Below, piece by piece: positions 58,808 through 64,000 of a stretch of 64,000 nt of DNA. Source of the stretch: Prochlorococcus sp. AG-363-C02 (lineage in GTDB: Bacteria > Cyanobacteriota > Cyanobacteriia > PCC-6307 > Cyanobiaceae); the NCBI GenBank assembly GCA_003278345.1, contig QCFH01000004.1, positions 10,431 through 74,430 on the forward strand. The letters run 5' to 3'. Under the pieces are notes generated by a model. That model did no database searches. It saw only the letters and a program-made list of their open reading frames with translations, and was not told the DNA's origin. Made by a program: the position numbers and the translations under genes. Numbering within the stretch: position 1 is the stretch's first letter; each line of letters opens with the position of its first letter.

Positions 58808-60511
58808 ATGAAACATGAAGAATATAATAAAAGATTAATCAAAAAATTAATCGAAACCTTAAAGAAAAGGATTCCACCTGAAAAAGAATCTAACTACTTA
58901 GATGATATAGTTAATTTACTAATGGATTCATTATCAAAAGGCGAAGTATATTTTGATATAAATAAATCATACCCTCACATTGAACTGAAAGAAGATGGCT
59001 GGCCAAAATTACATCTAAAAGAATTAAAAGAAAGTGGATGGATAGATAAAGAGCAATCTCCAATAGTTATTCATAACAATCAAATAAGTTGGCGGCGCTG
59101 GTTTGAGGAAATGCAGAACTTGATAAATCAATTATCAGAGAAATCTTTACTTAAGCCAAAGTATAATCTTAATAGTAAAGTTGAAAATATTGATACTATT
59201 TTATTGAAATTAAACTCACAGCAAAAATTAGCAGTTGATGCTGTAGTTAATAATAACTTAATTCTTTTAAGTGGAGGCCCCGGAACAGGGAAAACAACTA
59301 CAATTGTAAGTATGTTAGTCAAAGCAGTTTCAATTAAAAAAAATATTAATATTGGTCTTTGTGCACCTACCGGAAAAGCATCTAGAAGATTAGAAGAAAC
59401 TCTAAAAAAATCATTATCACACTTAAAAAGCAAATACAAGCAAAAATTAGCTGATATACCTTGCTTAACAATTCATAGCTGGTTACAAGCATCTGATGAA
59501 GGTTTTATTAAAAGCCAAGACAATCAATTACAACTAGATCTTTTGGTAGTAGATGAAATGTCAATGGTCGACTTCTCATTAATGCAGGGTTTGCTTAATG
59601 CTCTAAATCCAGAAAGTCAATTGATTTTAGTAGGAGATACTAATCAATTGCCTCCAATAGGCATTGGTTCAATTTGGCATGAACTACATAAATCTAATCA
59701 TCGTCTAAAATTTAAACACTGTTCAATACATCTTAATCAAATTTATCGAAGTAAAGGAGAGCTTATCTACTTATCAGAACTTATCAGGTCAAAAAAATTG
59801 AATGAGTTCTTTGATGAAGTCCAAAATCATCATGCTTCTGAAAATATAAACATATTTTTTTCAAATAAGGAGCTAATACCCGAACAAATAATTGAAACAA
59901 TTCATATACAGCAAAATAAATTAAAGCATTTAATTATGACTCTAAAAACATTTGTAAACCCAGAACTAATCTTATTAGATAATTCAGATGCAAAGAATGC
60001 TGCTGAAGATATTTTGACTTGTTTAGAATCATTAATTGTACTTTGCCCTAGGAAATATGGATATTGGAGTGTAGAACATATCAATAAAACATTTTTAGGA
60101 AAGAATTTTGAAGAAGGCTTATCAAAATGGCCTGAGGGCACTCCTGTGATATGTACAAGAAACCAATCCAATATTAAACTTGCTAATGGAGATATAGGAG
60201 TAATCATTGAAGGTATAAATTCAAAATACCTATTATTTAGAGTAAATTCACCAGGAGAAAGCGGAAATTGTCAGCTAATTAATCCGGCTAGAATCAAGTT
60301 AATTGAAGCCGCCTTTGCAATTACAATTCACAAAGCACAAGGTAGCGAATCTGAGCACGTAATTTGTTTTTGGCCTGATCATATTGCCAATCAAAATCCA
60401 ACAACAGAAGAATTGGAATACGAAGATGATGAATATAAAAAAAAATTATTATATACTGCTATCACTAGAACGAAAATTAAATTAGATTTAGCAGTTGCTG
60501 AGAAAAATTAA
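58808..60511 (+). CDS. recD: Exodeoxyribonuclease V alpha subunit (5'-3' helicase)
   Basis: GGPGTGKT, APTGKA, VDEMSM, TIHKAQGSE and LYTAITR motifs. Confidence 0.93.
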   Translation: MKHEEYNKRLIKKLIETLKKRIPPEKESNYLDDIVNLLMDSLSKGEVYFDINKSYPHIELKEDGWPKLHLKELKESGWIDKEQSPIVIHNNQISWRRWFEEMQNLINQLSEKSLLKPKYNLNSKVENIDTILLKLNSQQKLAVDAVVNNNLILLSGGPGTGKTTTIVSMLVKAVSIKKNINIGLCAPTGKASRRLEETLKKSLSHLKSKYKQKLADIPCLTIHSWLQASDEGFIKSQDNQLQLDLLVVDEMSMVDFSLMQGLLNALNPESQLILVGDTNQLPPIGIGSIWHELHKSNHRLKFKHCSIHLNQIYRSKGELIYLSELIRSKKLNEFFDEVQNHHASENINIFFSNKELIPEQIIETIHIQQNKLKHLIMTLKTFVNPELILLDNSDAKNAAEDILTCLESLIVLCPRKYGYWSVEHINKTFLGKNFEEGLSKWPEGTPVICTRNQSNIKLANGDIGVIIEGINSKYLLFRVNSPGESGNCQLINPARIKLIEAAFAITIHKAQGSESEHVICFWPDHIANQNPTTEELEYEDDEYKKKLLYTAITRTKIKLDLAVAEKN

Positions 60512-60553
60512 ATAATAGAAAATAACATTTAGAAACTTATTTGACACACAAAA

Positions 60554-60662
60554 TGATAGATTAAAAGAACCTTTAAAAAGGCGAGTCAACAAAGAGCGGT
60601 TATTGCCGATTGGAGAGTTGTCTGCCTGATTTTTAAAGGCTATCAGGCAAACAATCTCTTAA
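60554..60662 (+). promoter_or_regulatory. Extended -10 (TGaTAGATT) and structured 5' leader of the DEAD-box helicase gene
   Basis: TAGATT at 60557-60562; 17-bp interrupted hairpin at 60612-60659; competing helix 60570-60590/60617-60639. Confidence 0.6.
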
Positions 60663-62471
60663 ATGACAAAAACCAAAACAAATGAGGATATTAGTTCCTC
60701 TATTTCTTTAGAAGGTTCAACTCAACTTGATTCTGAAAAAACAACTCCTATAGATTTCATAGACAAAGAAACCCCATCTTCTAAGAAAATAGATGATGAA
60801 AGTCTTAAAAAGGGTTTTAATTCTTTTGGATTTAGCAAAGATCTAATACATACACTTGAGAAGAAAGGATACGAAGAACCTACTCCAATACAAAAAGCAG
60901 CTATTCCAGAGTTACTTCTGGGAAGAGACCTTCTAGGACAAGCGCAAACTGGTACAGGAAAAACAGCAGCCTTTGCATTACCTTTGCTAGAAAGAATAAA
61001 TAATGAAGAACATAATCCACAGGTCCTAGTCTTAACGCCCACTCGTGAACTTGCCATGCAAGTAGCTGAGTCATTTAAGGCTTACGCAGTAGGACATCCA
61101 AATATAAAGATACTTGCTTTATACGGTGGTTCAGATTTTCGATCACAGGTTTACTCACTAAAAAGAGGCGTAGAAATAGTAGTAGGGACGCCAGGCAGAG
61201 TAATGGACCATATAAGGCAAGGAACATTAATTCACGAGGGTCTTCAATGCTTAGTTCTAGATGAAGCAGATGAAATGCTGAGGATGGGTTTCATAGATGA
61301 TATTGAATGGATTCTTGAACAGATACCAAATGAACGGCAAATGGTATTTTTTTCAGCAACAATGCCTTCAGAGATAAGACATCTTTCCAAAAGATTCCTT
61401 AAAGATCCTGCAGAAATTACTATTAAGTCTCACAAAAAAGAAGCCAAGTTAATCAAACAAAAATACATAATAATCCAAAATAGCTATAAGCTAGAAGTGC
61501 TAAAAAGAGTTCTTGAGTTATCTAGTGGAGAAGGAGTCATAATTTTCGCAAGAACTAAAGCAATAACTTTAAAGCTTGCAGAAACCCTTGAAGCATCTAA
61601 GCACAATGTAGCCGTCCTCAATGGAGATGTACCACAAAATTTGAGAGAAAGGACAGTCGAAAGGCTACGACAAGGTGGCATTGATATTTTAGTAGCAACT
61701 GATGTAGCCGCAAGAGGATTAGATGTCGAACGTATAGGCCTTGTAGTTAATTACGACATGCCATTCGACTCAGAAGCATATGTCCACCGAATAGGGAGAA
61801 CAGGAAGAGCAGGTCGCACAGGTGATGCAATTTTATTTATAAGCCCAAGAGAAAGATCATATCTCCGCCACCTAGAGAGAGCAGTAGGTCAAAGTATAGA
61901 AAAGATGGAAATCCCAAGTAATCAATCTATCAATGAGCACCGTATTGCAAAAATAAAAAAAGATCTCTTAGAAAAAGCCTCTATTAGTAAGGAGAATAAA
62001 GATGAATCTGATTTGCTTCAAATTATAATTAACGAAGTAGAGGAGGAACTAGAACTAAACCCTAAAGAGCTTGCTTTGGCAGCATTAAATCTTGCTATTG
62101 GTCAAAGTACTTTATTAATGAAAACTGATGAAAGTTGGATAAATCAAGCAGAACGATACAACAAAAGTGGAGAGCGTCGAGATAGTAGGGGACGCAACCG
62201 TCGAAAAAACCCTATGGACATAGGCTCGAATGATAAAGATAAGGAAAGATTTAGAGTAGATGTAGGCCATAGAGACAGAGTAAAACCAGGGAATATAGTT
62301 GGTGCGATTGCTAATGAATCAGGGTTAAATGGACGTATGATAGGTAGAATTCAAATATTTGAAGATTACAGCCTCGTTGATCTCCCGAAAGGTATGCCAA
62401 CAAATATTTTCAAGAGCCTTAAAAAAGTAAAAGTAATGAATAAAGAACTAAATATTAATCGATTTAGTTAA
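60663..62471 (+). CDS. deaD: DEAD-box RNA helicase, DeaD/CsdA type with C-terminal DbpA RNA-binding domain
   Basis: Q motif, AQTGTGKT, PTRELA, DEAD, SAT, ARGLD, HRIGRTGRAG; C-terminal VGHRDRVKPGNIVGAIANE. Confidence 0.95.
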   Translation: MTKTKTNEDISSSISLEGSTQLDSEKTTPIDFIDKETPSSKKIDDESLKKGFNSFGFSKDLIHTLEKKGYEEPTPIQKAAIPELLLGRDLLGQAQTGTGKTAAFALPLLERINNEEHNPQVLVLTPTRELAMQVAESFKAYAVGHPNIKILALYGGSDFRSQVYSLKRGVEIVVGTPGRVMDHIRQGTLIHEGLQCLVLDEADEMLRMGFIDDIEWILEQIPNERQMVFFSATMPSEIRHLSKRFLKDPAEITIKSHKKEAKLIKQKYIIIQNSYKLEVLKRVLELSSGEGVIIFARTKAITLKLAETLEASKHNVAVLNGDVPQNLRERTVERLRQGGIDILVATDVAARGLDVERIGLVVNYDMPFDSEAYVHRIGRTGRAGRTGDAILFISPRERSYLRHLERAVGQSIEKMEIPSNQSINEHRIAKIKKDLLEKASISKENKDESDLLQIIINEVEEELELNPKELALAALNLAIGQSTLLMKTDESWINQAERYNKSGERRDSRGRNRRKNPMDIGSNDKDKERFRVDVGHRDRVKPGNIVGAIANESGLNGRMIGRIQIFEDYSLVDLPKGMPTNIFKSLKKVKVMNKELNINRFS

Positions 62472-62485
62472 AAATTCACAATCAA

Positions 62486-62782
62486 ATGAAATCAGCAATT
62501 AAAATAATATCTTCAATTCAAATAATAATAATAATAGTGATAATAGATTCATCTATTCCTAAAAAATATCATAGTGCAGATTTAAATGAACTTATAAAGG
62601 CTATTTGTATAGAGAGTTTCAAAAAAGAACTTATTAATAATAAAGAAGATATAGATATAGATCTAGGTAATAAGGTATGTGAATGCTTTGTAGACAGAAT
62701 AAACAATAATGAAACCATAGAATCAGCCCGTGAAAAATGCAAGGATGATATCATAAGAGAGATTAATTATAAAACAATATAG
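62486..62782 (+). CDS. Small Cys-containing exported hypothetical protein
   Basis: Hydrophobic N-terminus; C..F..., CEC and terminal C (4 Cys). Confidence 0.7.
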   Translation: MKSAIKIISSIQIIIIIVIIDSSIPKKYHSADLNELIKAICIESFKKELINNKEDIDIDLGNKVCECFVDRINNNETIESAREKCKDDIIREINYKTI

Positions 62783-62790
62783 AAATTATA

Positions 62791-64000
62791 ATGATAAATA
62801 TTTTAAGAAATAATTCTTTTATTAATTTAAATAATAATCCATTGATTAGGCTGCTGAAGAATCAATCCAAGCAAAATAATTTAATCATTCTAGCAGTAGC
62901 AAGCTCAATACTAAATAAACTATTTGACCTTGCTCCCCCTGTTCTCATAGGATTATCTATAGATGTTGTTATCAGAGAAAAGTCATCATATTTATCAACC
63001 TATGGATTCAAATCTGTACCAAGTCAACTTTTCGTACTTGCAATTACTTCTTTTATTATATGGACAGCTGAATCATTCTTTGAATACTTATATGCTGTAT
63101 TATGGCGAAATTTGGCTCAAAGTACTCAGCATAATTTAAGGATACAGGCATATAAGCATTTACAAAAATTAGAAATGTCTTTTTTTGAAAATGATAATTC
63201 AGGAAGGCTTTTAGCAATACTAAATGATGACATTAATCAACTAGAAAGATTTTTAGACCATGGAGCAAATCAACTAATACAATTAATTATAACAGTATTA
63301 TTAGTTGGTGGTGCAATGGCTTCACTTGCACCAGAAGTGGCAATTTATGCGTTTATACCAATTCCTATAATATTATTAGGTTCAATTAATTTCCAAAAGA
63401 AATTAGCACCTAAATATAAAGATGTAAGAGATAAAGCAGGAGACTTAGCTGGGAGATTAAGCAATAACTTGGGAGGAATGCTAACGATTAAAAGCTTTGC
63501 AACTGAATCATGGGAACTTAATCGTCTTAGTTTAGATAGTTACACATATCAGAAAAGCAATAGAGAAGCGATAAAGCTATCTGCTGCTTTTATACCATTA
63601 ATTAGATTCGCAATTCTATTTGCATTTCTTGCTATTCTTATTATAGGTGGGCTTAAAGCTTGGAGTGGGAATCTAGAAATAGGTGTCTATAGTTTTCTTG
63701 TATTTATTACTCAAAGGTTACTTTGGCCTCTAACCACTTTAGGTCATGTTCTTGATGAGTATCAACGCTCAATGGCATCTACAAATAGAGTATTAGATCT
63801 GATCGATAGACCAATAAAAATTTCAAGTGGATCATTACGGCTAAAACCAGGCCAGGTAAAAGGAAAAATAACATTTAAAAATGTATGTTTTCAATATGAT
63901 GATCGAATTAAACTATTAGATAATTTTAATCTAAACATATTAGCGGGGAGTACTATAGGAATTGTTGGACCAACTGGTTCAGGTAAAAGTAGTCTGGTTA
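62791..64000 (+). CDS. ABC transporter fused permease/ATP-binding protein (MsbA/multidrug type), 3'-truncated by the window edge
   Basis: Manual translation: MINILRNN...LNKLFDLAPPVLIG...LNDDINQLERFLD...TQRLLWPL...GIVGPTGSGKSSLV (Walker A). Confidence 0.92.
   Translation, partial: MINILRNNSFINLNNNPLIRLLKNQSKQNNLIILAVASSILNKLFDLAPPVLIGLSIDVVIREKSSYLSTYGFKSVPSQLFVLAITSFIIWTAESFFEYLYAVLWRNLAQSTQHNLRIQAYKHLQKLEMSFFENDNSGRLLAILNDDINQLERFLDHGANQLIQLIITVLLVGGAMASLAPEVAIYAFIPIPIILLGSINFQKKLAPKYKDVRDKAGDLAGRLSNNLGGMLTIKSFATESWELNRLSLDSYTYQKSNREAIKLSAAFIPLIRFAILFAFLAILIIGGLKAWSGNLEIGVYSFLVFITQRLLWPLTTLGHVLDEYQRSMASTNRVLDLIDRPIKISSGSLRLKPGQVKGKITFKNVCFQYDDRIKLLDNFNLNILAGSTIGIVGPTGSGKSSLV

Follow-up and report, generated by a model that had tools for sequence, protein, structure and literature searches.

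In the E. coli cspA cold switch and in RNA thermometers, translation is set by alternative mRNA folds and co-transcriptional folding is involved. Translational riboswitch platforms and attenuators operate through exchange of sequestering and anti-sequestering strands near a start codon. Among DEAD-box RNA helicases, E. coli DeaD (CsdA) represses its own mRNA through the 5' UTR in negative feedback that requires helicase activity, and remodelling of its own mRNA was proposed (Ojha and Jain, 2020, PMC7430678). In the available text of that paper the UTR is 838 nt long with spread determinants, control involves Rho and RNase E, and the RNA determinants of autoregulation could not be localised. 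Synechocystis crhR likewise encodes a cyanobacterial DEAD-box helicase that is cold-induced and autoregulated (Rosana, 2012, PMC3485376). CrhR belongs to a different, CrhR-like clade and is encoded in a rimO-crhR operon (PMC8190605, accessible part), and the accessible part of PMC3485376 mentions no two-fold leader and describes cold sensing as helicase-independent.

The leader analyzed here precedes a helicase gene of the same subfamily as E. coli deaD. In contrast to the E. coli UTR as described in PMC7430678, it is compact (∼95 nt), with two defined folds (A and B) and a predicted effect on initiation; feedback was demonstrated for E. coli deaD and is proposed here. It differs from cspA and RNA thermometers in that the A/B balance has no computed temperature dependence, no Shine-Dalgarno-type site lies under the hairpin and no sequence or Rfam match was obtained. 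It differs from riboswitch platforms and attenuators in that no conserved aptamer-like pocket, leader ORF or U-tract was noticed. The element appears to work like an autoregulatory leader with a riboswitch-style expression platform, so far outside any named family.

The window is a 64,000-nucleotide stretch of contig QCFH01000004.1 of Prochlorococcus sp. AG-363-C02, and the features of the locus are listed in Table 1. The leader of deaD (95 bases) lies in the 151-nt gap between the end of recD (60511) and the start of deaD (60663). CsdA-like helicases, found mainly in Prochlorococcus, Synechococcus and Cyanobium, are defined by a DEAD + Helicase_C core and a C-terminal DbpA RNA-binding domain (PMC8190605, accessible part). 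Synechococcus elongatus PCC 7942 lacks DEAD-box genes. The deaD product has this composition in the domain search and is a CsdA-like cyanobacterial DEAD-box helicase; its best NCBIfam match was PRK11634, with a score below the cut-off of that model. The helicase was matched in 235 of 251 genomes of the family and in all 168 near-complete ones, and no relatives were found in viral contigs with this query.

Table 1. Features of the recD-deaD locus (positions in the window)
Feature	Position	Strand	Pairing or remark
recD	58808..60511	+	Upstream gene in source lineage only; outside switch element; TIGR01447 above cut-off
Extended -10, TGnTAnnnT	60554..60562	+	Predicted +1 ∼60568-60570
Strand a (CCUUUAAAA)	60570..60578	+	Fold B: pairs strand d (P1, lock); fold A: pairs 60578-60581
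Strand b (AGGC-GAGU-CAAC)	60579..60590	+	Fold B: pairs central strand (P2a, P2b)
Variable insert with hairpin P3 (60597-60608)	60591..60611	+	
Central shared strand c (GGAGAGUUGUCUGCCUGAU)	60612..60630	+	Pairs b (fold B) or e (fold A)
Strand d (UUUUAAAGG)	60631..60639	+	3' strand of P1 in fold B; loop in fold A
Strand e and pyrimidine-rich stretch before start codon	60642..60659	+	Fold B: free; fold A: paired
CsdA/DeaD-type DEAD-box RNA helicase (deaD), 602 aa	60663..62471	+	Pfam DEAD, Helicase_C, DeaD_dimer and DbpA above cut-off
Hairpin early in deaD, codons ∼5-16	60676..60709	+	Core GAGGA 60684-60688/UCCUC 60696-60700; possible accessory element

Two further reading frames follow deaD closely, a 98-aa ORF without NCBIfam match at 62486-62782 and an ABC transporter gene at 62791-63999. 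In MED4, PMM1099-1101 form a single operon in the published list, and effects of the leader may therefore reach genes 3' of deaD. In one relative (L137) the deaD frame is broken near the start into frames of 146 and 503 aa, which is either a sequence error or a broken gene. In five others (L122-L126) stops were flagged inside the match, yet the frames are open for 596-599 aa and the flags are likely an alignment artefact.

Every pair that the original prediction had listed for the two folds was present in the sequence, base for base. In fold A, UGCCUGAU (60623-60630) pairs with AUCAGGCA (60642-60649) over 8 bp. The helix continues through a C.A mismatch, UUGU/ACAA (4 bp), a G bulge and an outer stem of GGAGA (60612-60616) with UCUCU (60655-60659, 5 bp), giving 17 bp in total and ending 3 nt before the ATG at 60663. 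The loop here is 11 nt and U/A-rich. Fold B comprises 9+4+2+4 = 19 bp between 60570-60590 and 60617-60639, and the small hairpin claimed at 60597-60608 is present. A 5' hairpin absent from the prediction accompanies fold A, with CCUU (60570-73) pairing AAGG (60578-81). The a-d + b-c pairing of fold B and the c-e pairing of fold A are mutually exclusive.

Fold A was the minimum free energy structure (-29.7 kcal/mol, z -2.73), equalled by 3 of 200 shuffles. Fold B was recovered twice, as the best structure without fold-A pairs and as the nascent-chain fold. The energies of both folds were reached by 2 of 1000 dinucleotide shuffles of this leader. Among 676 upstream regions of the source genome, which are G+C-poorer (median 0.32 vs 0.40), 9 reached the fold-A energy and 25 the fold-B energy. 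The two-fold signal from the single sequence alone is moderate; the strong evidence for the two folds is conservation.

The 5' end of the transcript was predicted from the promoter motif and a published start site. TGATAGATT at 60554-60562 is an extended -10, as originally stated. In 123 of 125 leaders the motif TGnTAnnnT precedes strand a by 16-23 nt, and the promoter is taken to be real. It was not called in a sigma-70 scan of the locus because the scan needs a -35. MED4 gene PMM1101 is presumably deaD, which agrees with the operon length. A transcription start is listed 81 nt upstream of PMM1101, the first gene of a three-gene operon (PMC5607370, accessible part). Other high-light-type leaders were used to stand in for the MED4 leader; 7 of these give an expected distance of 79-83 nt, with 79 nt from strand a to the AUG. 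The predicted start at the 5' end of fold B agrees with this distance. The start lies 1-4 nt before strand a, so the extreme 5' end of the transcript is paired in fold B. By the promoter and the MED4 start-site and operon entries, the leader lies within the 5' UTR of the helicase's own transcript.

A total of 135 loci of the family were taken, of which 134 had upstream DNA. The same architecture was found upstream of the CsdA/DeaD-type helicase in 127 of the 134, parsed into identical ordered blocks and representing 125 distinct leaders from ∼52 genus groups; Prochlorococcus sp. AG-424-M03 and Synechococcus sp. MIT S9452 are among the named relatives that share it. The blocks are the extended -10, strand a (CCUUU), strand b (GGC + P2b arm), a variable insert, strand c (GCCUG core), strand d (AAGG) and strand e (CAGGC core), with the start codon mostly 11-16 nt further on. 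Core pairs were retained in 122-125 of 125 leaders, partly by construction of the anchors, as the parsing motifs presuppose the cores (GCC/GGC) and six leaders were anchored by hand. The distance from strand b to the central strand varies from 27 to 190 nt in relatives. The a-b hairpin is part of the fold-A minimum free energy structure in 81 of 125 leaders.

recD lies directly upstream in 60 of the 125 leaders; of the remaining 65, 63 have a cupin-like ORF there. In the window, 60511-60554 contains no cupin-like gene and recD adjoins instead. The element is retained when the upstream gene changes and therefore belongs to deaD. The alternative attached to the original prediction, that fold A is a recD terminator, is excluded by the persistence of the element where recD is not adjacent.

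Outside these counts were one locus at which the contig ends (L032), one that was not parsed (L142), duplicates (L012-L021), three expanded leaders (L109, L111, L112), one diverged leader (L118) and three different leaders (L130, L131, L140). The expanded leaders, all of genus group g33, are 270-300 nt long with large structured inserts common to all three. Their cores are recognisable with a U-A to C-G change in the c-e core, an extra small hairpin holds part of strand e, and fold A is favoured by 7-12 kcal/mol. L118 keeps a B-like nascent fold with an altered core of strands b, c and e. The different leaders upstream of deaD in L130 and L131 (g9) and L140 (g49) may be independent solutions; in L130 a long hairpin of its own immediately precedes the AUG.

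A covariance model (R1) was built from 42 marine-type leaders. At E<=1 it matched all 5 family loci examined and none of 75 other deaD loci, and it identified one real copy in the source genome. It gave no match in 148 genomes of other families in the phylum, which is a weak negative because the two family genomes carrying divergent versions escaped the model as well. A sequence-pattern search was left unused, as it gave many matches per G+C-rich genome.

Alignment of deaD leaders placed both folds under selection, with the signal for fold A alone weak in the MAFFT set. This structure-blind alignment comprised 42 marine-type leaders. In fold B, 11 of 22 pairs were changed on both sides, against 3.8 in shuffled alignments, and none of 500 shuffles scored as high; controls with the fold slid along the alignment gave 2-8 such pairs. 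By helix, both-side changes were present in 4 of 7 pairs of P1, 4 pairs of P2 and 3 of 4 pairs of P3. The 8-pair stem of fold A was 84.8% paired in the same set. It had both-side changes in 2 pairs, no excess over shuffles (332 of 500 as high), while the covariation score was matched by 46 of 500 shuffles and a weak excess was present in paired cells (6/500) and both-side cells (10/500). This result for fold A is weak, though a core held by two partners would be expected to give it. RNAalifold returned just 5 pairs (the fold-A core), with no both-side change.

An anchored analysis was also performed, in which strand a was placed by best pairing. When each genus contributed one leader, the c-e stem gave 31.8 both-side cells, compared with 14.2. 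A DeaD protein tree of 82 tips, whose deep nodes are weak, gave 11 tree-independent double changes in the c-e stem and 6 in P1, each against 0-2 in slid controls. Pairing of a leader's own strands was only slightly above that of G+C-matched swaps (27-36 of 52). One leader (L081) carries a triple change, G to A in strand c with U in both partners, strands b and e. We conclude with high confidence that both folds matter.

A single static structure, be it fold B, fold A or a pseudoknot of a-d + c-e with the second fold as by-product, would fit the weak covariation of fold A in the MAFFT set and the preference of this leader for fold A by 8.5 kcal/mol at 20°C. It is very unlikely, as both partner strands track the central strand, including in the triple change. 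In addition, the C of GGC in strand b is conserved at 95% and is explained only by b-c pairing, which excludes both fold A and the pseudoknot.

The ensemble gap between the folds (A-B) had a median of -1.5 kcal/mol at 10, 20, 30 and 37°C across the 125 leaders. At 20°C fold A was more stable in 82 leaders and fold B in 43, and the gap was within 3 kcal/mol in 70. The leader of the window lies at the end of the range where A is favoured (-8.5 kcal/mol at 20°C); its gap is -6.4 at 37°C and -10.2 at 10°C, so the closed fold gains in the cold. On cooling from 30 to 10°C the gap shifted by a median of just -0.24 kcal/mol; of 52 genus groups, 24 moved towards A in the cold and 13 towards B. The cold thermometer suggested by the original prediction therefore fails as an equilibrium device in these nearest-neighbour computations: the balance barely moves between 10 and 37°C across the family, and in this leader cold deepens the closed fold. 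A stable hairpin adjoining the start codon downstream of recD is what an equilibrium RNA thermometer or a recD terminator would look like, yet given this flat balance and the independence from recD either reading is barely credible.

Three further identities were tried and rejected. No intrinsic terminator was called at fold A, and 6 of 125 leaders have 5 or more U among the 8 nt that follow the helix. For Shine-Dalgarno sequestration, the anti-SD duplex is -2.9 kcal/mol here and below -5 in 16 of 125, with no SD-like site under the hairpin. For mimicry of 23S helix 92, the longest shared stretch was 7-10 nt (p 0.1-1.0, 6 leaders) and the loop 5-mer, in the form we take to be the helix-92 loop motif, occurred in 7 of 125.

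Computed opening energies bear out the original proposal that fold A closes the initiation region and fold B leaves it more open. Opening of -15..+13 at 20°C cost a median of 11.4 kcal/mol in A against 6.4 in B, and was costlier in A in 103 of 125 leaders; in 22 of 125, A was not more closed than B. The median distance to the start codon is 27 nt from the end of P1 and 10 nt from the end of the A helix, and the latter distance exceeds 12 nt in 46 of 125 leaders.

Alternatively, the main target of the switch could be mRNA decay or processing, whether or not the helicase takes part; fold A would then expose an A/U-rich loop or remove 5'-end protection. The pairing of the very 5' end in fold B, the 11-nt U/A-rich loop of fold A, cold induction visible at the mRNA level and the RNase E route of E. 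coli deaD control (PMC7430678, accessible part) are all in keeping with this. Against it are the raised cost of opening the ribosome footprint in those 103 leaders and the loops of fold A, which are G+C-richer in many relatives. As the main action of the switch, decay is improbable; it is not exclusive with helicase feedback.

Because strand e is transcribed last, fold B is computed to form first. On a nascent chain ending just after strand d, fold B made up >0.5 of the ensemble in 110 of 111 leaders, 14 leaders with long inserts being left out of the nascent-chain and barrier set. In the leader of the window B is the dominant fold between 60627 and 60647; from 60649 on, the equilibrium favours A. 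The B to A barrier had family medians of 21.5, 19.7 and 17.4 kcal/mol at 10, 20 and 30°C, and values here of 20.7, 17.1 and 14.1 kcal/mol; these are nested-path upper bounds, which a partial pseudoknot could lower. The original prediction had treated pairing of the fold-A loop with the 5' end as a toehold for strand exchange. Since B is made first, this pairing (P1) is better read as the lock of fold B.

A purely kinetic cold switch would dispense with the helicase: B would convert to A unaided, perhaps via a partial a-d + c-e pseudoknot, at a temperature-set rate that races ribosome loading. The barrier does rise from ∼29 to 38 kT between 30 and 10°C, and a defined intermediate would require the tight spacing seen around strand d (7 nt in 99 of 125 leaders, 8 nt in 75 of 125). 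Cold induction of the gene in MIT9301 and WH7803 also fits. However, barriers of 14-21 kcal/mol here look too high for a short-lived mRNA once converted to rates; the median half-life of an mRNA pool is 2.4 min (PMC10989914, accessible part). The link of the element to a helicase gene would also be left unexplained, and we consider passive switching unlikely.

Helicase-operated negative feedback is regarded, with modest confidence, as the most likely mechanism of the leader, which would thereby likely report the RNA-unwinding capacity of the cell. In the proposed sequence of events, the order of synthesis makes B the birth state, with A the resting state or nearly so, and new transcripts would be trapped in B and translated. 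P1, an A/U-rich helix of 7-9 bp flanked by a single-stranded 3' tail, would bar the route from B to A. Active DeaD would load on this tail and open the lock, whereupon the local hairpins of A (c-e; a-b) would close and initiation fall; closure probably also shortens mRNA life. In the cold, or with the helicase busy on other misfolded RNA, B would persist and more helicase would be made. We tentatively describe the leader as a protein-catalysed kinetic-trap sensor, in which the metastable first fold may be a built-in test substrate for the encoded enzyme and cold may be read indirectly, without thermometer or transcription factor.

Helicase feedback is favoured by the regulated gene being itself an RNA remodeller and is consistent with the activity-dependent self-repression of E. 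coli DeaD (PMC7430678, accessible part). Short duplexes carrying a 3' or 5' extension are unwound by E. coli CsdA, which also displaces strands (PMC1616957 and PMC3590231, accessible parts). In MIT9301 deaD mRNA per cell was 0.057 at 17°C and 0.006 at 30°C in the dark, and 0.092 and 0.024 in the light. The level at 17°C thus exceeds that at 30°C 4- to 9-fold, in a non-monotonic course (25°C at least equal to 20°C). In WH7803 the gene called crhR, taken to be the CsdA-like gene, is cold-induced in high-light cells. Neither induction implies the leader as cause, and mRNA levels do not imply translational control. Helicase-independent cold sensing and transcript stabilisation of crhR in Synechocystis (PMC3485376, accessible part) count against the feedback reading.

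A different RNA-binding protein, an sRNA or a metabolite (as in a riboswitch) could also flip the switch. The layout, with mutually exclusive pairings, has the form of a riboswitch expression platform, and a few conserved bases are explained by neither fold, namely an A that follows AAGG (78%) and purines that follow GGC (82% and 81%). Nearly all bases conserved >85% are nevertheless paired in fold A or B, and no Rfam match was obtained. A look for a ligand core found few conserved unpaired bases and a very variable insert, whose 27-190 nt range leaves no fixed pocket evident. Such a factor is a distinctly improbable alternative to helicase feedback.

The view that the leader is no named RNA family was upheld by a scan against Rfam 15, in which no family reached its gathering threshold and the best overlapping match scored 18 bits against 83 needed; 8 homologous loci gave no Rfam match. 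Literature searches, with term look-ups in the accessible parts of PMC1242208, PMC5737381 and PMC9111926, returned no description of it. A CMfinder screen of cyanobacteria published in 2026 included DeaD-group flanks (PMC12873609, accessible part), and the leader may be among its 409 unnamed structures, listed in a supplement that could not be read. The leader is a real, family-wide two-fold element and is probably undescribed.

A hairpin early in the coding region was compared with synonymous recodings, which gave p<=0.05 in 23 of 124 homologs (p=0.10 for this gene) and z<0 in 38 of 52 genus groups. Its conservation beyond amino-acid constraint is moderate. In many relatives it coincides with an H-E-x-x-S-C-S-V-D-like motif in the variable N-terminus. 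A protein motif or a translation-activating stem-loop could account for it, and the two may coincide. The translation-activating stem-loop of fepA reportedly sits at +19. That element is also in early coding sequence (PMC11979758, accessible part), and the likeness is positional only.

The leader offers a small, defined and naturally varied substrate with two named folds, which makes directly testable how a DEAD-box helicase senses its own activity. It may qualify as a new Rfam family and could serve in reporters of helicase activity. Its retention extends from G+C-rich relatives down to the most streamlined Prochlorococcus. Cold limits the range of that lineage, in which the leader may be one of few post-transcriptional controls left. 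If the proposed mechanism is true, picocyanobacteria would set DeaD levels by measured unwinding capacity.
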